Shown here: positions 10,624-30,406 of the stretch, in pieces | Layout: each line of letters starts with the position of its first letter | How positions within the stretch are numbered: the stretch's first letter is position 1 | NCBI GenBank assembly: GCA_963772365.1 | Contig: CAVYXA010000005.1 | Span: 64,001-128,000 of the forward strand | Direction of reading: 5' to 3' | Source: an uncultured Verrucomicrobiae bacterium | GTDB taxonomy: Bacteria > Verrucomicrobiota > Verrucomicrobiia > Chthoniobacterales > UBA10450 | DNA: 64,000 nucleotides | Position numbers and translations under genes: made by a program | Notes under the pieces: generated by a model | Told to the model about the DNA's origin: nothing | Seen by the model: the letters and a program-made list of their open reading frames with translations, nothing else | The model's database searches: none

Positions 10624-12514
10624 ATGTGCGGCATAACAGGCCAGTTTAACTTTATCCGGCGCGAACCGGTCGAACCGGACACGATCCGGCGCATGACTGC
10701 GACGATCGTTCACCGCGGACCGGACGATGAAGGGTATTACATTGCCGGGGGCATCGGGCTGGGCGTTCGCCGATTGTCTATCATCGATATTGCGGGCGGG
10801 CATCAGCCGATGTCCGACGCGGAAGAGACTGTCTGGGTCGCGTTCAATGGTGAGATTTACAATTTCAAAGAACTTCGCATCGAACTCGAACAGCATGGTC
10901 ACCAATTCCGCACCAAGTCCGATACGGAGGTGATCATTCACGGTTATAAACAATGGGGAACGGAGATCTTGAATCATCTCAATGGGATGTTCGGACTCGC
11001 CATTTGGGACGTGAAAAAACAGAGACTCGTCGTGGCGCGCGATGCCATGGGCATCAAGCTAATCTATTATAGGATCGACAATGGACGGCTGACCTTTGGG
11101 TCCGAAATCCGGCCGCTTCTTGCCGCAGACGATTCCAAGCCGGATGTCGATCCGGTCGCGCTGAATCTCTTTCTTCGTTTTCGTTATACGCCATCGCCGT
11201 TAACCATTTACCAGGGCATTCGAAAACTCGCGCCCGGCACGATGCTGGTTTGCGAAGATGGCAAGTGTGAAGAGAAACGCTGGTATAACTTTGTCCGAAC
11301 TCCGTTTCCGGAACACAAGGGCGAACAAGAAAGACGCGAAGAACTGCTGGAGTTGTATCGCGCGGCGGTCCGGCGACATTTGTTGAGCGATGTCCCAGTT
11401 GGGATTCTTCTCAGCGGTGGGCTCGACTCGGGATTGCTCCTGGCGCTGATGAACGAGCAGGGCGGTCCCTGGCCGGCTTATACGATCGGCTACGGCGAAA
11501 CATTCGATGACGACGAGCTGGTCGATGCAGCCGAAACGGCGAGGGCATTGGGTGCGCGGCATGTCACGGTAAAACTCGATCGAGGCGAGTTTGAAAGATC
11601 GCTGCCTAAAATCGTGGAATGCCTCGAGGAACCGATTGCTGCTTCTTCCATTGTGCCGATGTATTTTATCTGTGAGCGGGCACGACAGGATGTAAAGGTC
11701 GCCTTGATCGGCCAGGGACCCGACGAACTATTCGGCGGCTACAAACGTCACCTCGGTGTGTCACTATGGCGATTGGTGGCGGCTTCTACCGAAGAGTGTC
11801 CGGTCCGCTTTTGGGTATGCGGTAAACGGGCTGCCCCGCAACGAGACTCTCAAACGCGGCGTCGCTTCGCTGGGGACAAACGATCGGTTGAAACGATACC
11901 AGGATGTATTCGCGCTGGCGCCGGCCGAGACGATCGACGGTTTGTTTCAGGATGGCCTATTTCGAAATGGCCGCAGCCATGGTTTGGCCGATTACTGGAG
12001 CGACCTCGTACCCCAAATGGTCCATACCGATGAGCTGGGCGGATTTCAGCTGCTCGAGATCCGGTCGTCGCTTCCAGACGAGCTGCTCATGTATGCGGAC
12101 AAGCTATCAATGGCCCACAGCTTGGAGGCGCGTGTGCCGTATCTCGACCGGACCGTGGTGGAATACGTCCAGAGATTAAACGCCGATCTCAAGATTCGGA
12201 ACGGCAGCCGGAAATGGCTCCACCGGCAGGTCTGCGCGAAATATTTGCCGCGCCGGATTCTCAAGGGAAAGAAGCGTGGCTTCGCCGTAAACGTGGTGGA
12301 CGATTGGTTTCGCTCATCGCTGAATGGGAAATTCCAGGAATCGCTGCTCGACGAAGGTTCGCTCATGTTCGGCCTGCTCAAGTCCGGAGCGATACGGGAA
12401 CTGGTGAACGACCATCAATCCGGGCGTCAGGACAATCACAAGGTGCTGTTCAGCCTGGTGATGTTCGAGCAGTGGCTGCGCAGCAAAACATCACTTGCTG
12501 GCAAAAATCAGTAG
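10624..12514 (+). CDS. asnB: Asparagine synthase (glutamine-hydrolysing)-like amidotransferase, frameshift near 11760
   Basis: MCGI, HRGPD, FNGEIYNF, LSGGLDS, DKLSMAHSLEARVP. Confidence 0.92.
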
Positions 12515-12519
12515 GACGG

Positions 12520-13557
12520 ATGAAATCTGCAATCAACAAGGCGTTTCTTTTTGCTTCCTATGGTTTCCCGCGGGCAATCCTTGCGAGGACCATTCATTTC
12601 CCCTTACTGGCACCGTTTTATCATCTGGTTAGTGATGATCACCCGCCACACATTAAGTATTTATTTCGTTATCGGACGATTGCCGAATTCAAAAGGGACA
12701 TAGAGTTTTTCTTACAAGATTACCACCCGATCAGTCTTGATGAAATCCTTCTACACATTAGAACGGGAAAAGCTCTGTCCCGAAAAAGCTTCTTTCTCTC
12801 TTTCGACGATGGACTACGCGAGATTCACGAAGTAATTGCACCGATTCTGAAGGAAAAAGGAATTCCGGCGACTTTCTTCGTGACAACCGCAACGCTCGAC
12901 AACGCCGACATGATCTACAGGCACAAAGCGAGCCTGATCGTTGATCAACTGATGAGAGTACAACAACAAAACATCGCAGAAGTGAAAAGAGTCCTGGGGA
13001 AAAGAGGAATCTACAATGACGATCTTGCGGCTGCAGTCCTTGGCGTAAAGTACAGGGACCGTGAAGTGCTCGATGACGTAGCACAATGCATCGAATTAGA
13101 CCTTAGAGAATACCTGGCTCGACGACGGCCCTACGCAAGCACTGGCGAAATCAAAAAGTTGATCTCAGAAGGGTTTACCATTGGTGCACACAGCGTTGAT
13201 CACCCGTTTTATCCAGAATTGCCCGTTGATGATCAATTGCGACAGACCAACGAAAGTCTCGAGATTGTCACCCGGCTATTTGGGCTTTCCTACAGAGCTT
13301 TCGCTTTTCCCTTCGGGGATAATGGAGTTCCAAAGCGATTTTTTAATCAAGTCCTGGCAGAAAACGCAGCCGATGTCCTGTTCGGTAGCAGCAGCTCATT
13401 TTGGAACGACGAATATTATCCGTTCGCTGTTCAGAGGCTCGGTATGGAGAGCGGATTTCATAGAGCGGCGGATAATCTGCGCGTCGCTGAGATCAAGTTC
13501 GGACTAAGAGTGATGATTGGCAGGTCGAACGTTAGAAGATCGAGTGGTAGAAATTAA
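12520..13557 (+). CDS. Polysaccharide deacetylase (CE4)
   Basis: FYH, LSFDDG, IGAHSVDHP, FAFPFG. Confidence 0.88.
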   Translation: MKSAINKAFLFASYGFPRAILARTIHFPLLAPFYHLVSDDHPPHIKYLFRYRTIAEFKRDIEFFLQDYHPISLDEILLHIRTGKALSRKSFFLSFDDGLREIHEVIAPILKEKGIPATFFVTTATLDNADMIYRHKASLIVDQLMRVQQQNIAEVKRVLGKRGIYNDDLAAAVLGVKYRDREVLDDVAQCIELDLREYLARRRPYASTGEIKKLISEGFTIGAHSVDHPFYPELPVDDQLRQTNESLEIVTRLFGLSYRAFAFPFGDNGVPKRFFNQVLAENAADVLFGSSSSFWNDEYYPFAVQRLGMESGFHRAADNLRVAEIKFGLRVMIGRSNVRRSSGRN

Positions 13558-14653
13558 GCAATACACACTGGCCGATTTGAGCGAGCTGGTGCACTCGAAC
13601 AGTTTTTGGAATGGAGATTTGATTCCAATTACAAAGCATCGCGCATTGTCCCAAGTCAAAAACCCACGCGCCCACCCGGAAGACGTTGTTTTGCTTGTCG
13701 CCCGAGACGGGGACACAATTTGTGGATTTACCGGTGTGTTGCCTGACCTCATTTTCTTGCCGGAAGAAACGCTCAGAGTAGGATGGCTTACGGCATGGTG
13801 GAGGAAACCCGGTTCACGATATGCAGGGATAGGGTCGAAGCTTCTGATGAGGGCGTTAGAGCTTTATCAGGGAGCAATTTGCGTGGAACCGCCTTCAGAG
13901 TCTGCCAGGAAGGTCCTGGAGAGGTCAGGACAATTCGTAACCCTGCAGGAGAACACGGAGGTGCGAGCGATCATAAGAGTGAATACGCGCTCTATTCTTT
14001 CTCGAAAGATTCCTGCATTGAAGAAATTCGGATTGTTTCTTGGACTGCCCGATAGTCTGGCGAACATTTTTTGCCGAGCGAGATTGCGATTTTGGACGGC
14101 GCGGCATGGAATCTCCGGAGCGCTGCGGGTCGAGTATATTACTGCAGTCGACCCTGAAACAGCCGATTTCGTAAACAAGCTCCGGGACCATGATTTGCAC
14201 AGAATGGGTGCGCCCGAGTTAAACTGGATTGCCCAGAGTCCGTGGATTTTAACGGCGCCTTTGAAGGAGGGAACGGTAAAGAACTACTATTTTTCAGCGA
14301 CCGCTAAAGAATCACTTTGTTTGATGATAAAGATTCTCGAATCTAAGGGCTCTCTGATTGGTTTTGCGATCCTGACGTTAATCAATGGGCACTTAAGAGT
14401 CCCATACTGTTACATGCAGCCCGAGCATGCCGATGAAGTATTTCGAGTCATCGGCGAACATGCGGTCGCCCTGCGAGCCGAAAGTCTCACCCTTGGTCGA
14501 TCGGAATTAAAAGCGAGTATGCGTCGCCTGAGGTTTCCATGTCTCCTAAGGAGCCAGAGGCTGCGCCGGTGGACGATTGGGAATCTGTACGCTGGCAAGG
14601 TCACACGCTGTGCTCAAATTCAGGATGGAGCCGGAGACTGCGCATTTTTTTAG
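13517..14653 (+). CDS. GNAT-fold acyltransferase
   Basis: WLTAWW...YAGIGSKLL motif A-like; start may be GTG at 13544. Confidence 0.65.
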   Translation: MAGRTLEDRVVEIKQYTLADLSELVHSNSFWNGDLIPITKHRALSQVKNPRAHPEDVVLLVARDGDTICGFTGVLPDLIFLPEETLRVGWLTAWWRKPGSRYAGIGSKLLMRALELYQGAICVEPPSESARKVLERSGQFVTLQENTEVRAIIRVNTRSILSRKIPALKKFGLFLGLPDSLANIFCRARLRFWTARHGISGALRVEYITAVDPETADFVNKLRDHDLHRMGAPELNWIAQSPWILTAPLKEGTVKNYYFSATAKESLCLMIKILESKGSLIGFAILTLINGHLRVPYCYMQPEHADEVFRVIGEHAVALRAESLTLGRSELKASMRRLRFPCLLRSQRLRRWTIGNLYAGKVTRCAQIQDGAGDCAFF

Positions 14654-14753: not shown

Positions 14754-15755
14754 GTGAGTGACGTGTCTAATAACTCTGCAAATGTCAGAATTTTTGAGGA
14801 GACAATCCGCTTCAGGGGCGTCCCTGTGCGGCGAACCGCTGTGTTGGTTGATCATCAAACATTCATCATTTCGGGAAAGTTTCTGAGAACGGCAAGCTTG
14901 AAAAGAGAGTGGCAGGAGGATGTGAGCGACCCGAGAACGGTCATTCAAGCACTAACGAGTGACCTTGCGAGACCCGATCTGCTGAAGTTCTGGCAGAGGG
15001 TTCCCGACATTGCTGCCAAGTTTGGCTACTACAAGGAATGGCGGCAAATTGCCGCGATCCCGATCACCAGTTACAAGCAATGGTTTGAAAAACAAATCAG
15101 TCCCAAGGCGCGAAACAAAATTCGAAAGTCGCAGAAACTTGGGGTCGTTGTCAGACAGGTCGATCTTAATGACGACTTTGTTAGCGGCGTCATGGCAATC
15201 TACAACCAATCTCCGATCCGGCGCGGGAAGCCGTTCTGGCATTACGGAAAAGATTTCGAGACGGTAAAGAGCGAATTATCGGCTGATTTGGACAGCTCTG
15301 TTCTTATCGGTGCCTATTACAAGGAAGAGCTAATCGGTTTCATTAAGTTTATGATCACCGACAGATACGCGATGACGCTGTTGATTCTGGATAAGATATC
15401 GCATCGCGACAAAGCGCCAATGAACGCGATGATCGCAAAGATCGTGGAGATTTGCGCCGACGAGAAGATTCCATATTTCACCTATACAGTGTGGCGGCGG
15501 GGCGAGCATGGTCAGTTTCAAGAAAGTGTTGGATTCAAAAAAATCCCAGTGCCCGAATACTTCGTTCCTTTGACAGCAAAGGGGAAATTAGCTTTGTGGC
15601 TCGGGTTACATAAAGGACTCAAGGGAGCGCTCCCAGAAAAAATAATGGTTTGGCTGTTAACAATGAGAGCGAAATGGTACGCAATGAAGTATTCTAAAAA
15701 ACACCGTACCCGATTGAACGCTGGGCACAAATCCATGGCGGTATCCTCGACCTAG
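14754..15755 (+). CDS. FemAB/FemX-like GNAT-fold transferase
   Basis: WFEKQISPKARNKIRKSQKLGVVVR basic helix; APMNAMI...GQFQESVGF resembles the Fem C-terminal motif. Confidence 0.6.
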   Translation: MSDVSNNSANVRIFEETIRFRGVPVRRTAVLVDHQTFIISGKFLRTASLKREWQEDVSDPRTVIQALTSDLARPDLLKFWQRVPDIAAKFGYYKEWRQIAAIPITSYKQWFEKQISPKARNKIRKSQKLGVVVRQVDLNDDFVSGVMAIYNQSPIRRGKPFWHYGKDFETVKSELSADLDSSVLIGAYYKEELIGFIKFMITDRYAMTLLILDKISHRDKAPMNAMIAKIVEICADEKIPYFTYTVWRRGEHGQFQESVGFKKIPVPEYFVPLTAKGKLALWLGLHKGLKGALPEKIMVWLLTMRAKWYAMKYSKKHRTRLNAGHKSMAVSST

Positions 15756-15808: not shown

Positions 15809-16810
15809 ATGAAAAGCCCAATATTTATTGTGGGGCCGCACCGAAGCGGGAGCACGCTTTGGCATAATCTCATTGCGATGTGTCCAGGCGTCATGAGATT
15901 GGGCGATCCGCGGTTTCTCGCGCGGCGGGGACAACTCGATTTCAGATTCTTTCTTAACACACAGGCTCGTAACCTGGCGACGATCGAAGAGAGCGAAACT
16001 CTGGTCGAGCTCTGTTTCTCGAAAAAGCGCATCCCAGGTCTGGAAGGCGCTTTCTGGAGATTTGAAGGCATTCCCGCGGTGGACGATCCCGAATTGCGAA
16101 AGGAAGTTGCTCGCCGGATTTTTGAATCGGATCGGAGCTCGGGAACGATCGCGCGGATTTTGATTGAAGAGATCACGAGGTTTAGCGGATGTGAGCGGGC
16201 CTGCATCAAGTTTCCTGTCGATGTTGCGCATATCTCGGAGCTGATGGAATGGTTTCCGGAGGGGAAGGTTGTTCATATCACGCGGGATCCCCGAGCCTTG
16301 GCGATGTCGAAGAGCAACGATCCGTCCGGAACGGCGATTAAACTGGTGAAACATCCGCGGTTTGCCTGGCTGATAAGAAAGGCGAGCATCTGGGCGACAA
16401 TTGTTCAGTATCGCCTCAGTGCGCAAGTGCATCAGCAGTTTCAGGGGCGAACGAATTACCAGTTGTTTCGATATGAAGATTTATTGGCCGATCCGGAACA
16501 GATTTTGCGTGAGCTTTGCGAATTCATCGACACCGATTTTCAGGAAGAGATGCTTGAACCGCAAATGGGCCGCCATGAACATCAGCCGTCGAGCCTGACT
16601 GGCAAACGGCAGAAAGCGTTCGACCCAGCCGCAGCGGACCGATGGAGAAATGTGATTCCGCGAATAGATTACTGGCTGATCACCTGCTTTACGCACGGCA
16701 GCATGAAAACATTGGGATACGGAGACAGACGTCAGAAGTCACAAGTCAGAAATCAGCACTCGAAACACGACAATAGCTCGGACGTAGTTGAGTATTTCGC
16801 TGACCGCTGA
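15809..16810 (+). CDS. Sulfotransferase
   Basis: IFIVGPHRSGST (5'PSB), RDPRA..S (3'PB), RYEDL. Confidence 0.92.
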   Translation: MKSPIFIVGPHRSGSTLWHNLIAMCPGVMRLGDPRFLARRGQLDFRFFLNTQARNLATIEESETLVELCFSKKRIPGLEGAFWRFEGIPAVDDPELRKEVARRIFESDRSSGTIARILIEEITRFSGCERACIKFPVDVAHISELMEWFPEGKVVHITRDPRALAMSKSNDPSGTAIKLVKHPRFAWLIRKASIWATIVQYRLSAQVHQQFQGRTNYQLFRYEDLLADPEQILRELCEFIDTDFQEEMLEPQMGRHEHQPSSLTGKRQKAFDPAAADRWRNVIPRIDYWLITCFTHGSMKTLGYGDRRQKSQVRNQHSKHDNSSDVVEYFADR

Positions 16811-16851
16811 CCACTGATCGCTGTCTTCTGTCCTCCGTCGTCGGTCCTCTG
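16726..16851. repeat. Inverted heptamer arms (TCAG / CTGA grading into CTGT and CCGT)
   Basis: cagacgtcagaagtcacaagtcagaaatcagc ... gctgaccgctgaccactgatcgctgtcttctgtcctccgtcgtc. Confidence 0.8.
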
Positions 16852-16872
16852 TTTTGTTTTGGAATCTAATTT

Positions 16873-16963
16873 GGAGAGGTGGCTGAGTGGTTTAAGGCAG
16901 CAGCTCGAAAGAGCTGCTATACGGCAGCGGCCGTATCGGAGGTTCGAATCCTTCCCCTCTCCG
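16873..16963 (+). ncRNA. tRNA-Ser-like RNA with a non-canonical anticodon arm (7-bp stem + GAAA tetraloop)
   Basis: Acceptor GGAGAGG/CCTCTCC, G73, Ser-type D-arm GCTGAGTGGTTTAAGGC, 7-bp variable arm, TTCGAAT T-loop; anticodon arm GCAGCTC-GAAA-GAGCTGC; no encoded CCA. Confidence 0.85.
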
Positions 16964-16971
16964 CTCTTCCA

Positions 16972-17082
16972 AAACTGAAATACTGAAAACTGAAACGCTG
17001 AAAATTCCAGCATGTCCGCCTTTCCCGCTTTTGTGTTCTCTGACTTCAGTTTTTCCTTTTATCAGAGTTTCAGATTTTTAGC
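16972..17082. repeat. CTGAAA-type 7/8-nt repeats with inverted TTCAG partner
   Basis: ctgaaata-ctgaaaa-ctgaaacg-ctgaaa ... ttcagtttt...tttcagatttttagc. Confidence 0.75.
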
Positions 17083-17089
17083 GTAACTT

Positions 17090-18964
17090 ATGCCTGGCAT
17101 AGTTGGAATCGTTAGCCGCCGGCCGGCAGGCCAATGCGAGTCCCTGGTTTACTCAATGGCGGCTACGATGCAGCATGAGAGCTTTTACAAATCGGGAGCC
17201 CATTCTGCTCCGGAGCTGGGAATCTACGCGGCTTGGGTTGCGCATGAGAACTCGTTTGCCGCGAGTCAGGCCTTCTTCAACGAGCAACAGGATGTCGCGC
17301 TCCTCTTTTCGGGCGAATGCTTCGCGGATCCGGAAATTGTGTCCAACCTCCGGGAAAAAGGCCATAACATCACGACAACGAGGGACTGGTTAGTTCATCT
17401 CTACGAAGATGAAGGGGACAGATTTTTTGAAAAATTGAACGGCCTCTTTAGCGGATTGTTGATTGATAAACGACAGCGAAAAACATTTCTCTTCAACGAC
17501 CGGTACGGACTGGAACGCATCTATTTTCACGAACGGGATAACGATCTCTATTTTGCCAGCGAGGCGAAGGCTTTGTTGCGAGTTCTGCCCGAGCTAAGGG
17601 GATTTGATCGGGAGGGTGTCGCGCAGTTCGTCGCTTTCGGGTGTACGCTGCAAACACGAACGTTATTTCGGGGCGTTGAAATGCTCCCAGGAGCGTCGTG
17701 CTGGGCATTTGAAAACGGAACGTGCCGGAAACGAACTTATTTCTCTCCGAAGCAATGGGAGGAGCAAAGCTTCCTTTCGCCCGATGAATTTGAAACCCAG
17801 TTTCAAGAGACATTTGCAGAGATATTGCCCAAGTACTTCGAATCGGAATCAAAAATCGGTATCTCGCTAACCGCCGGTTTGGATTCCCGAATGATTATGG
17901 CGTGTCTTCCAGGAACAAAACAGCCGCCTGTTTGTTATACATTCTCCGGCCAACATCGGGATACGTTAGATGCCCGTCTGGCGGCCCAGGTTGCGAAAGC
18001 CTGTGGCCTGGAACACAAAACTTTTCCCGTTCGTCCCGATTTTTTCTCCGACTTCAGATCTCTTGTCGATCAAACCGTTTACCTCAGCGACGGCTATCTG
18101 GGAGTTCTCGGCGCACATGAGATTTACTTTAACGGGCGGGCGCGCCAGTTGGCGCCCGTGCGAATCACCGGAAATTTCGGAAGCGAGATCCTTCGAAACG
18201 TTTCGACGTTCAAGTCGCGTCGGCTTTCACCTGAACTGATCAATCCGGATGTTCTTCGAGATACAGGTGACGTAGCGTCTGCTCTCGATCGAAACCGATG
18301 TAACCCGGTCAGTTTTGCGGCATTCCGGGAAATACCGTGGAAAAGATTTGGAATCCTGAAGGCGGGAAGTTCTCAATGTGCTTTTCGAACTCCTTATCTT
18401 GATAATCGACTTGTAGGCCTGGCCTATCGAGCCCCTGAAAGCCTCCGCAACTCCCCGTATCCGGCGCTGCGTCTTGTGGAGAAGAACCATCGGGGTCTTA
18501 CTCAAATTCCGACAGACATGGGGTTCACTATATATAATCGGAAGGCTCCTCTGTTTCGAAATGCGTTTTTCAAGGCGACCTTCAAACTGGATTATCTCTA
18601 CAATGATGGTCTGCCTCACTTTCTATCTTCGCTAGACCCATTTTTTAGGGGAGTGCATTTGAGGTCAGGTCTTTTGGGCCTTCACAAATTCCTTCATTAC
18701 CGAACATGGTTTCAGCATGAGCTTGCGAACTATATTGTTGAAAGTTTGGAAGGCGCGCGAACAAACGCGGACTGTTTCTGGAATCCTCGTTTTCTTGAAC
18801 ACGTTGGGATAGGCCATACGCGCGGCCGAAAGAACTACCTCCAGGAGATCGACATCGTGCTGACCTTGCAAGCTGTCGAGCGACTGCTTTTTACAGATCT
18901 GCCTCGCTCCATTAATCCAGTTCCGACTTCCATCCGATCGGTTGAACTGGCAACAGCACATTAG
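17090..18964 (+). CDS. Asparagine synthase-related ATP-dependent ligase lacking the N-terminal Cys
   Basis: MPGIVGI (Pro in place of Cys), DRYG, FASEAKAL, SLTAGLDSR, RTPYLD. Confidence 0.8.
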   Translation: MPGIVGIVSRRPAGQCESLVYSMAATMQHESFYKSGAHSAPELGIYAAWVAHENSFAASQAFFNEQQDVALLFSGECFADPEIVSNLREKGHNITTTRDWLVHLYEDEGDRFFEKLNGLFSGLLIDKRQRKTFLFNDRYGLERIYFHERDNDLYFASEAKALLRVLPELRGFDREGVAQFVAFGCTLQTRTLFRGVEMLPGASCWAFENGTCRKRTYFSPKQWEEQSFLSPDEFETQFQETFAEILPKYFESESKIGISLTAGLDSRMIMACLPGTKQPPVCYTFSGQHRDTLDARLAAQVAKACGLEHKTFPVRPDFFSDFRSLVDQTVYLSDGYLGVLGAHEIYFNGRARQLAPVRITGNFGSEILRNVSTFKSRRLSPELINPDVLRDTGDVASALDRNRCNPVSFAAFREIPWKRFGILKAGSSQCAFRTPYLDNRLVGLAYRAPESLRNSPYPALRLVEKNHRGLTQIPTDMGFTIYNRKAPLFRNAFFKATFKLDYLYNDGLPHFLSSLDPFFRGVHLRSGLLGLHKFLHYRTWFQHELANYIVESLEGARTNADCFWNPRFLEHVGIGHTRGRKNYLQEIDIVLTLQAVERLLFTDLPRSINPVPTSIRSVELATAH

Positions 18965-29431: not shown

Positions 29432-30406
29432 ATGGACTCTTCTTCAGCAAAGGCGGGAAATCTTTCGGCGAGGGCGCCGCAAGATGCACGCGATGCGCCC
29501 GCACACGAGCCGTCAGGCAGTCCGCTCCCCGATACTAAATCTCGCGCTCATCTGATCGGCTTTGGAATCTGCGTGGCGGTTCTGATCGCGGCTTTCATCA
29601 GGCCGCTGATCGGGCTGGCCGTTTATGCTGCCCACAGCAATCTGAATTCGCACATTTTGTTGGTCCCGTTTGTGACTGCTTATCTATTACACATTCGTCG
29701 CGATCCGCTTTCGACGAGATTTAAATCCTCACCGCTTTGGGCGATCGCCCCGCTGATCGTCGCGCTGCTGAGCTTAAGCGCTGCATTTGTCTGGGACACC
29801 GAACTGAGTCGAAATGATCACTTCACGTTGCTGGCTCTCTCGTTTCTTGGATTCCTGGTTGCAGCCGGATTTTTATTCCTGGGACGCGCCTGGATGTGGT
29901 CGGCCGCGTTCTCAGTGTTCTTTCTCATTTTCATGATACCGATGCCGGATGCCATGGCGAACGCATTGGAGACGGCATCGAAGTTCGCCTCGGCCGATGC
30001 GGCCAGTTTCTTCTTTAATCTGACTGGCACACCGGTTCTGCGAGATGGTTTGGTTTTCCAGTTGCCGAATATCGCGATTCAAGTCGCCCAGGAATGCAGC
30101 GGTATTCGATCGAGCTGGGTGCTGTTCATCACCAGTTTGCTGGCGGCAAATCTTTTTCTACAAAGCCCATGGCGGCGCGCGGCACTAGTGGTGTTCGTTA
30201 TTCCGCTCGGGATTATCCGGAATGGTTTTCGCGTCTTCGTGATCGGCACGTTGTGCATCCGATACGGGCCGCAGATGATCCACAGTATTATTCATCGCCG
30301 CGGCGGGCCGTTCTTCTTCGCGCTTTCGCTGATTCCGCTGTTTCTGTTGCTCTGGTGGCTACGGCGGGGCGATGACGGAGCACGGATGAAGGCGGAAGAC
30401 AGATAA
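29432..30406 (+). CDS. Exosortase (possibly VPDSG-CTERM-specific)
   Basis: SHILLVP, VAQECSGIRS (Cys), NGFRV (Arg), IIH (His); multi-TM. Confidence 0.92.
   Translation: MDSSSAKAGNLSARAPQDARDAPAHEPSGSPLPDTKSRAHLIGFGICVAVLIAAFIRPLIGLAVYAAHSNLNSHILLVPFVTAYLLHIRRDPLSTRFKSSPLWAIAPLIVALLSLSAAFVWDTELSRNDHFTLLALSFLGFLVAAGFLFLGRAWMWSAAFSVFFLIFMIPMPDAMANALETASKFASADAASFFFNLTGTPVLRDGLVFQLPNIAIQVAQECSGIRSSWVLFITSLLAANLFLQSPWRRAALVVFVIPLGIIRNGFRVFVIGTLCIRYGPQMIHSIIHRRGGPFFFALSLIPLFLLLWWLRRGDDGARMKAEDR

Follow-up and report, generated by a model that had tools for sequence, protein, structure and literature searches.

The RNA gene and its fold

The stretch of DNA analysed here, referred to throughout as the window, comprises 64,000 nucleotides (nt) of contig CAVYXA010000005.1 (positions 64,001 to 128,000, forward strand) in assembly GCA_963772365.1, from an uncultured Verrucomicrobiae bacterium. 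Within a polysaccharide locus, it carries a gene for a small RNA that has the body of a serine transfer RNA (tRNA-Ser) and a closed hairpin in place of the anticodon arm; we propose that this RNA is probably an aminoacyl carrier that serves polysaccharide tailoring rather than decoding. The features of the gene, as read from the sequence, are as follows:

16873-16963, plus strand: tRNA-Ser-like RNA gene, from G1 to the discriminator G73
16900-16917, plus strand: 7-base-pair (bp) stem with a GAAA tetraloop, replacing the anticodon arm
16955, plus strand: extra C separating the 3' strand of the T stem from the 3' strand of the acceptor stem

The body, read in the same way, is that of a Ser-type tRNA of class II. 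Its 7-bp acceptor stem includes G1-C72, G2-C71 and A3-U70 and is followed by G73 at 16963; the D arm, of the Ser type, retains G18G19 and has a stem of 3 bp plus G13.A22; the variable arm has a 7-bp stem and a 4-nt loop; and the T arm combines a canonical T loop with a stem containing G50.U64 and A51-U63. A cloverleaf with acceptor, D and T arms is, therefore, present, together with the G18G19 and T-loop motifs of the elbow, although CCA is not encoded in this copy. The acceptor/T branch is of the 7/5 type plus one unpaired base, such that the T stem is not directly stacked on the acceptor stem. The replacement for the anticodon arm is a perfect 7-bp helix capped by GAAA, spanning 18 nt as against the normal 17 nt, with neither U33 nor a 7-nt loop. 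RNAfold returns the same 7 bp and GAAA cap for the isolated arm (-12.2 kcal/mol), and the minimum free energy of the whole RNA is -43.9 kcal/mol against a shuffle mean of -30.8 kcal/mol (z = -3.87; 0/200 shuffles as low).

Programs that look for tRNAs handle this molecule poorly: the Rfam tRNA model (RF00005) gives no match at its gathering score for 16873-16963, the top Rfam match in a permissive scan is tRNA-Sec (RF01852; 37.3 bits against a gathering score of 47), and ARAGORN calls a 'tRNA-???' with the four-base 'anticodon' gaaa. Read literally, the last of these would make the RNA a decoding tRNA with a four-base anticodon, that is, a frameshift suppressor, and ARAGORN does list both gaaa and gcaa as such anticodons. 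The four bases are, however, the tetraloop on a 7-bp helix, there is no U33 and no 7- or 8-nt loop, and the loop sequence obeys the GNRA rule, not a codon family; the structure thus contradicts this idea, to which we give next to no chance.

Both flanks of the RNA (16726-16870 and 16965-17089) are rich in short repeated words. Upstream, these resemble GTCAGAA and CTGACC; downstream, four CTGAAA words precede TTTCAG words, and the two sets could form a long imperfect hairpin before the AsnB-like gene described below.

The RNA is an addition to a full decoding set. The genome to which the window belongs (6 contigs, 3.35 Mb, 90% complete) has tRNA-Ser genes with GCU, GGA, UGA and CGA anticodons, plus a separate tRNA-Sec gene (C3:484007-484104), and a single serS gene above the family cut-off. 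The capped RNA is its fifth Ser-type gene and, because the tRNA-Ser set is already complete, it is dispensable for decoding: this fifth gene is not needed for translation.

Conservation of the capped RNA

Relatives of the RNA were sought by BLAST in 61 related genomes, four of which hold full-length copies at 82-88% identity, all with the 7-bp arm and a GCAA cap. A covariance model built from six copies (R1) was then applied to 151 genomes of the same family. The tallies from BLAST and from the model, and presumably those of the Fem-like gene and of the Thr-like sites below, include the unpublished genomes G003, G008, G014 and G159 as non-carriers only, and nothing positive is claimed from them. 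It recovers 15 copies in 13/151 genomes at 84-112 bits (111.4 bits for the window RNA), whereas the highest-scoring true tRNA-Ser, a tRNA-Ser(GCU), reaches 78.5 bits. The same-genus genome G001 lacks the RNA according to both BLAST and the model.

In the 15-copy alignment (A2), which was fitted to the model and in which the arm is gap-free except for one terminal position in one copy (G017b), 6/7 pairs of the capped arm have changed on both sides, and the paired fraction of cells is 97.1%. The covariation score for the whole structure is 0.332, compared with 0.176 for shuffles (0/500 as high) and at most 0.125 for slid registers; across two alignments of the Ser-type RNA, 98.3% and 96.8% of cells are paired. 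G1-C72, G2-C71 and A3-U70 are almost invariant and G73 is present in 15/15 copies, as is the extra C, in copies that the model found with no sequence pattern being used. The 50-64 pair is G.U in 11 copies and G.A in 4.

The model gave no match at E <= 2e-15 in 135 genomes of 15 other families in the order. As a later pattern scan did find members in other Verrucomicrobiota lineages, the threshold of the model or the sampling must have missed them. That scan used the T-arm-plus-extra-C signature on one genome per species (185,579 species) and yielded 52 loci, of which 48 were kept; by construction, T-arm features are constant in this wider set and distant members are missed. Among those dropped, L115 duplicates L114, and L095, L097 and L117 (Holophagaceae) share only the T-arm pattern and are not tRNA-like. 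Most of the loci come from metagenome-assembled genomes (MAGs) labelled Chthoniobacterales, Candidatus Udaeobacter, Pedosphaera, Limisphaerales or Opitutaceae.

MAGs assigned to other phyla (L096, L111, L118, L122, L125, L126 and L099) also contain almost identical Ser-like genes, flanked by the same neighbours; these MAGs are labelled Alphaproteobacteria, Terriglobales, Candidatus Elarobacter, Limnocylindrales, Methylomirabilota, Bifidobacteriaceae and Acidobacteria. Such near-identity suggests that contigs were mis-binned or that the cassette was transferred horizontally.

Fifty distinct sequences of the wider set were aligned to the model, and 49 of them have an arm. The 5-bp/7-nt form of an anticodon arm is not seen in any of the 49. 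The length is 18 nt in 37/49, and GNRA caps are likewise found in 37/49 (GCAA 30, GAAA 5, GUAA 2), with the other 12 having the tetraloops ACAA, CUUG or UCAC, or loops of 5-6 nt. A stable, non-decoding hairpin is, therefore, the rule, and a GNRA cap is favoured but not obligatory. Among the 47 distinct genes that match a stricter pattern, 46 have G73 and 28 encode CCA (compared with 12/48 tRNA genes of the window's genome), and the 50-64 pair is never Watson-Crick (G.U in 41, G.A in 6).

These data bear directly on the possibility of a tRNA-Ser pseudogene in decay, the remnant of an integration site or a hairpin that arose by chance. The score of the RNA below the Rfam tRNA threshold and its absence from G001 would be in keeping with this, as would the existence of degraded copies (one in G157, a second copy each in G077 and L132, and a shortened one in L096). 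Nevertheless, compensatory changes preserve the pairing of the arm across the 15 and across the 50 distinct sequences, there is a clean score gap to true tRNA-Ser and the neighbours are constant (see below). Moreover, a copy that has truly decayed looks quite different, which itself argues that the capped RNA is not decaying. The score gap, arm covariation and synteny contradict the pseudogene and attachment-site readings, which we judge extremely unlikely; the capped RNA is conserved and under selection.

The decayed copy lies in G157 (L072:4740-5000, minus strand), between sulfotransferase and AsnB-like genes: a mutated T arm directly follows the 5' acceptor strand, some 45 nt, corresponding to the D, anticodon and variable arms, being missing. 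Additionally, second, weaker copies are seen within the loci at L039:424-513 (G077; 84.2 bits), L132:6074-6162 (71.3 bits) and L096:7616-7687 (45.7 bits). In two of the three, which precede the Fem-like gene, the acceptor stem is weakened; one copy, 72 nt long, has lost most of its anticodon and variable arms.

The original prediction for this DNA, made from its letters, had described a tRNA-Ser body with a GAAA-capped 7-bp arm at 16900-16917, as well as G50.U64, A51-U63 and one extra base at the T-stem/acceptor junction, and the plus-strand sequence at 16873-16963 reads just so. Its argument that a perfect, GNRA-capped stem is not the product of random decay is borne out by homologs that keep the arm through compensatory changes, and its view of the RNA as non-decoding by the want of a decoding loop in all 49 distinct arms alongside a complete decoding set. 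It had also proposed a covariance-model search for tetraloop-capped homologs; this turned up the 15 copies in 13 genomes, although some members beyond the closest relatives have caps other than GNRA.

The Fem-like transferase gene

Two genes regularly accompany the RNA. The first lies, in the window, upstream of it on the same strand:

14754-15755, plus strand: transferase-like gene of the Fem fold (tandem GNAT), 333 aa, from weak profile matches and an AlphaFold2 model

The sole NCBIfam match of its product is to TIGR03019 (E = 1.5e-4; 20.9 bits against a cut-off of 260.35), and that to Pfam FemAB (PF02388) has E = 0.18 (11.1 bits against a cut-off of 24). Among 27 relatives, TIGR03019 is matched by only 4, Acetyltransf_6 by 16, FemAB by 7 (E up to 0.1) and LPG_synthase_C by 2. 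The AlphaFold2 model has a predicted local distance difference test score (pLDDT) of 86.6, and aminoacyl-tRNA-dependent transferases are its closest structural matches. Foldseek ranks Sbb17/Sba18 with streptothrisamine first (E = 7e-13), then FemX, and then the domains of MprF and other aminoacyl-phosphatidylglycerol synthases (aaPGS), with E-values for Fem-fold matches from 7e-13 to 1e-7. In VIA-align, FemX gives Z = 19.0 over 262 residues, Sba18/Sbb17 18.1-18.5 (Sba18 18.5), FemA 17.3, Weissella FemX 16.5-16.9 and MprF 14-16; the first 16 rows are all aminoacyl-tRNA-dependent enzymes, and acetyl-CoA-dependent tandem GNATs rank lower. On the strength of the model, the protein is predicted to have the two-GNAT-domain Fem fold.

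When the window proteins were used as tblastn queries, the Fem-like gene was found beside the RNA in 12/12 assessable family loci (one further contig begins at the RNA) and in 45/48 wider loci, the matches lying on the strand of the RNA. Two of the three wider loci without a match are cut by contig ends; the third, L130, has full flanks. Across the family, the gene is present in 32/151 genomes, and these cover all 13 that have the Ser-like RNA.

In 24 of the 32, a tRNA-like gene adjoins the Fem-like gene, this being of the Ser type in 13 and of a Thr type alone in 11. No tRNA-like gene is called beside the Fem-like gene in the remaining 8, which include one decayed remnant, one T-arm-like fragment and one broken Fem-like gene. 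The fragment is at L084:5880-6020 (G097, minus strand), where a 100-nt gap between the Fem-like and AsnB-like genes holds a T-arm-like stretch and no callable tRNA; it may be another remnant or a third type of RNA.

A parallel Thr-type RNA

Of the 19 genomes that have the Fem-like gene and lack the Ser-like RNA, there are 11 in which the Fem-like gene is immediately followed by a gene of 72 nt called as 'tRNA-Thr'. A pattern search found 22 such sites in 21/355 family genomes, as follows:

L074:7045-7117, L077:6931-7003, L081:6897-6968, L040:2642-2716 and 18 more (L174-L195): Thr-like RNA genes

All 22 are just downstream of the Fem-like gene on the same strand, at a distance of 33-185 nt in 21 sites and of approximately 400 nt in G100, where a Ser-like RNA lies in between; G100 and G087 carry both Ser-like and Thr-like RNAs. 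The D loop and T arm deviate from those of canonical tRNA-Thr: the D loop is without G18G19, and in the variable region and T arm five T-stem pairs form only if a U is bulged, 2/5 being mismatched in the standard register. The discriminator is U73. The anticodon loop is a normal one of 7 nt, with an NGU anticodon in 21/22 (CGU 16, UGU 4, AGU 1), and a normal tRNA-Thr(CGU) is encoded elsewhere in 5/5 genomes checked. At L190:1497-1571 (G443, minus strand), the Thr-like body has UCC in place of NGU, and ARAGORN calls it a tRNA-Gly.

In a tree of 66 distinct Fem-like proteins, which was a quick version with labels shared among related genomes, 20/21 Thr-linked proteins fall in one clade with a support of 99 in the Shimodaira-Hasegawa-like approximate likelihood ratio test (SH-aLRT), and the two Fem-like paralogs of G087 group with the matching RNA types.

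Recognition of tRNA-Ser does not involve the anticodon, but for tRNA-Thr some nucleotides of the anticodon are among the identity elements (PMC9976931). This would account for the loss of the loop by the Ser type only, because seryl-tRNA synthetase (SerRS) ignores the anticodon, whereas threonine identity requires nucleotides within it. Indeed, judged from their sequences, the pattern of parts kept and lost in the two RNAs seems hard to explain unless housekeeping synthetases charge both.

The AsnB-like gene

The gene downstream of the RNA is the second regular companion:

17090-18964, plus strand: divergent AsnB-like gene, 624 aa; its product starts MPG, has no Cys2 nucleophile and has an altered PP-loop

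The model of the protein (pLDDT 86.7) is closest to TsnB9 (template-modelling score 0.69-0.76), and then to AsnB, beta-lactam synthetase and carbapenam synthetase; together with partial matches to TIGR03108 and TIGR01536, this predicts a two-domain AsnB fold. The AsnB-like proteins begin MPG, not MCG: among 19 sequences, none has Cys2 and none the exact SGGxDS motif, both of which are present in the canonical AsnB of the window. By tblastn with the window proteins, the gene is found in 13/13 family loci (fragmented in one) and in 41/48 wider loci, again on the strand of the RNA.

The protein could amidate a glycan carboxylate with a new amino group or, more boldly, might act on a tRNA-bound residue. 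The second option leads to an alternative in which the RNA is charged with serine as a scaffold, the AsnB-like enzyme converts the bound serine or threonine, and the Fem-like enzyme transfers the product; the lost anticodon would then keep the altered aminoacyl-RNA out of translation, in a manner comparable to the tRNA-dependent routes to selenocysteine, asparagine, glutamine and cysteine. In its favour, the AsnB-like gene adjoins the RNA as regularly as the transferase gene does; its product, lacking the glutaminase Cys and the exact SGGxDS in 19/19, is not an ordinary asparagine synthetase; its fold is nearest to the carboxylate-activating TsnB9 and beta-lactam synthetase; and the top Rfam match of the RNA, tRNA-Sec, is the classic scaffold for conversion on a tRNA. 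On the other hand, neither serine nor threonine has a side-chain carboxylate for AsnB-type adenylation, nothing in the analysis ties the AsnB-like protein to the RNA and, to our knowledge, no enzyme of the AsnB family acts on aminoacyl-tRNA. We regard the scaffold as an unlikely alternative. A bolder extension, a small adaptor system outside the ribosome in which each Fem-like paralog has its private Ser or Thr carrier, withdrawn from translation through structural changes, the AsnB-like enzyme remodels the tRNA-bound residue and a non-proteinogenic residue is installed in the polysaccharide, is similarly doubtful.

Proposed function

We consider it probable, if well short of certain, that this derivative of tRNA-Ser is a non-decoding aminoacyl carrier dedicated to polysaccharide tailoring; its charging, its exclusion from EF-Tu and the nature of the acceptor are what we infer within this proposal. 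The RNA would be made along with the polysaccharide operon and trimmed in the manner of a tRNA. The single SerRS would then serylate it, reading the long variable arm, G73 and the acceptor stem, and not the anticodon: these are the known elements of SerRS identity (long variable arm, G73 and first acceptor pairs, with no need of the anticodon; PMC9976931, in the portion covered), and all of them appear from the sequence to have been kept, in agreement with the original prediction that the features recognized by SerRS are intact. Decoding would be impossible, as the anticodon loop is visibly absent. Two features, the lack of Watson-Crick pairing at 50-64 and the extra base where the T and acceptor stems join, probably enable the RNA to evade EF-Tu, an exclusion for which tRNA-Sec and the staphylococcal tRNAs discussed below provide the precedents. 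The adjacent Fem-fold transferase would move the seryl group to an amine on a precursor of the polysaccharide, for which a de-N-acetylated amino sugar is the simplest candidate, and the Cys-less AsnB-like protein would act in some way on the same product. In the sister loci, the same scheme would operate with the aberrant tRNA-Thr-like carrier.

The choice of an amino sugar as acceptor is prompted by the Sba18/Orf11 precedent and by a further gene of the locus, the product of which could, from its family, free the acceptor amine:

12214-13557, plus strand: polysaccharide deacetylase-family gene (Pfam Polysacc_deac_1, E = 4.5e-18)

The original prediction of a link to envelope or exopolysaccharide tailoring is supported by the presence of a Fem-fold transferase gene in 12/12 family and 45/48 wider loci; what has been added to the earlier picture is the constancy of the partner genes, the tRNA-Thr-like carrier in sister loci and the variability of the caps.

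A quite different role would be that of a tRNA-shaped processing or stability element in the operon transcript, never aminoacylated, at which RNase P and 3' nucleases cut apart the upstream and downstream messages, or the fold of which shields the mRNA ends. The RNA is always situated between same-strand genes, neither a promoter-like site nor a plus-strand terminator-like site was found around it, and for this purpose the anticodon arm need only be a stable hairpin, in keeping with the varied caps. The lack of such sites is also weak evidence for the co-transcription and tRNA-like processing that the carrier proposal assumes. A processing element would have no need, however, of G73 (46/47), an encoded CCA (28/47) or a Ser-type variable arm, nor of the NGU kept in the Thr type (21/22); nor would it have reason to follow the clade of the transferase next to it, or to have a non-Watson-Crick 50-64 pair in 47/47 genes. 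We therefore hold such a role to be improbable. The acceptor-end features tell in the same way against the RNA being an uncharged cofactor or guide that is bound, for instance in allostery or assembly, by the AsnB-like or Fem-like protein. This would accommodate the constant three-gene linkage and the frequent GNRA caps (37/49), which are possible docking sites for protein or RNA, but it would leave the existence of two RNA types, matching the identity rules of two synthetases, unexplained; we think it very unlikely.

Several observations weigh against the carrier proposal itself. The Fem-like protein falls below the curated cut-offs of both Pfam FemAB and TIGR03019, and a shared Fem fold does not prove a shared substrate. 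At L130, neither partner gene lies within 5 kb of the RNA, which adjoins a polysaccharide export gene. In the 8/32 family genomes with a Fem-like gene and no tRNA-like gene called beside it, the enzyme may also use ordinary tRNAs, or the loci may be decaying. The clade structure of the Fem-like proteins comes from the quick tree with shared labels, and the T-arm constancy of the wider set is built into the pattern by which it was gathered. With 12/49 distinct arms having other caps, GNRA as such is not essential. The extra base can also be read as part of a tRNA-Sec-like 9/4 branch with a U.C mismatch, a reading that would leave no linker ahead of the D stem. Finally, the proposal does not account for the AsnB-like protein.

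Comparison with known systems

The closest known system is that of the non-proteogenic (NP) tRNA-Gly species of staphylococci. In the parts of PMC7826273 covered here, NP1-NP3 of Staphylococcus aureus and S. epidermidis are the donors for FmhB, FemA and FemB: they are charged by the normal synthetase, bind EF-Tu poorly owing to peculiarities of the T stem and T loop, and are preferred by the Fem transferases; the affinity of staphylococcal tRNAs for EF-Tu is set by the first three T-stem pairs; and non-proteogenic tRNAs have so far been detected only in these two species (PMC7826273). As with the capped RNA, they are extra isoacceptors beyond the decoding set. They keep their anticodon loop, however, whereas the window RNA has none, and they serve the peptidoglycan of Gram-positive cocci, as opposed to polysaccharide operons in Verrucomicrobiota. 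Moreover, the window RNA differs in that it is encoded in an operon, next to the gene for the transferase, and has one additional base where the T and acceptor stems meet.

On the protein side, Sba18, Sbb17 and Orf11 are Fem-like, aminoacyl-tRNA-dependent enzymes that glycylate the amino sugar streptothrisamine (PMC12945691, as far as covered; PDB titles). They are among the top structural matches of the Fem-like protein and transfer an amino acid from aminoacyl-tRNA to an amino-sugar amine (PMC12945691), but they belong to Streptomyces antibiotic pathways, have 11-14% identity to the Fem-like protein and, in the same portion of the source, use ordinary Gly-tRNA with no dedicated tRNA. TIGR03019 (FemAB family XrtA/PEP-CTERM system-associated protein) is likewise Fem-like and a hallmark of exosortase-type polysaccharide loci, although the window protein is far under its cut-off (20.9 versus 260.35 bits).

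On the RNA side, tRNA-Sec, the top Rfam match, resembles the capped RNA in being of the Ser type and charged by SerRS, with a long variable arm and a longer anticodon stem, and it is held off EF-Tu by pairs in the acceptor/T branch (PMC9976931, in the portion covered). The window RNA lacks the UCA anticodon, however, its D arm is of the Ser type and not of the Sec type, and its score is 37.3 bits against the required 47. The 8/4 and 9/3 allo-tRNAs of Mukai et al., from soil bacteria and in some cases suggested to be regulatory, share Ser identity, long variable arms and irregular acceptor/T branches (PMC5389517, in the portion covered, as for the following points). In contrast to the capped RNA, they keep their anticodons and have been shown to translate, their 12-bp branch is 8/4 or 9/3, and they are tied to toxin-antitoxin systems or mobile elements, not to Fem-like genes; no capped-hairpin anticodon arm is described for them, the only tetraloop mentioned being in a D arm (PMC5389517). 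The covered part of a review of non-canonical tRNAs (PMC7609411) describes nothing like the capped RNA. More broadly, the covered parts of the full-text literature, including PMC5389517, PMC7609411, PMC9437257 and PMC12945691, with subscription journals and supplements lying outside this scope, describe neither a tRNA without an anticodon nor a link between tRNA genes and Fem-like genes in polysaccharide loci.

The following consequences depend on the carrier proposal. Non-proteogenic tRNAs have been a staphylococcal curiosity for sixty years; the window would place the logic of a dedicated non-proteogenic tRNA in an unrelated phylum and in polysaccharide synthesis, and in a more extreme form, with the anticodon loop gone. 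The paired Ser- and Thr-type carriers would amount to a natural experiment on which parts of a tRNA each synthetase requires. Records labelled Candidatus Udaeobacter and other Chthoniobacterales, which are very abundant soil bacteria, contain the carriers, and for this reason carrier chemistry may shape a widespread soil polysaccharide. The RNA would also be a ready-made, translation-orthogonal seryl carrier for synthetic biology.

Other genes of the locus

Further features of the window show the surroundings of the RNA to be an exosortase-type polysaccharide locus:

15809-16810, plus strand: sulfotransferase gene separating the transferase gene from the RNA (Pfam Sulfotransfer_3, E = 8.7e-22)
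10624-12514, plus strand: canonical XrtA/PEP-CTERM-type amidotransferase (AsnB) gene, split by a frameshift (TIGR03108, 377 bits)
29432-30406, plus strand: exosortase gene (Pfam Exosortase_EpsH, E = 2.1e-47)

The locus also encodes glycosyltransferases, a Wzx-like flippase, sulfotransferases, the deacetylase and a UDP-sugar dehydrogenase; these polysaccharide genes and the exosortase fit the exopolysaccharide operon in which the RNA had originally been placed. The top NCBIfam match of the exosortase is the XrtC-like TIGR04151, under its cut-off. According to tblastn, the canonical amidotransferase switches from frame 1 to frame 2 near 11761, and this frameshift is either a broken gene or an assembly error.

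Between the deacetylase and Fem-like genes, a GNAT-like open reading frame (13517-14653, 378 aa) has no counterpart in the other loci compared; it was considered as a relative of the Fem-like family and rejected, hhalign assigning a probability of 0.5%. The sulfotransferase gene, by comparison, occupies the same position in three other genomes (G025, G171 and G099).

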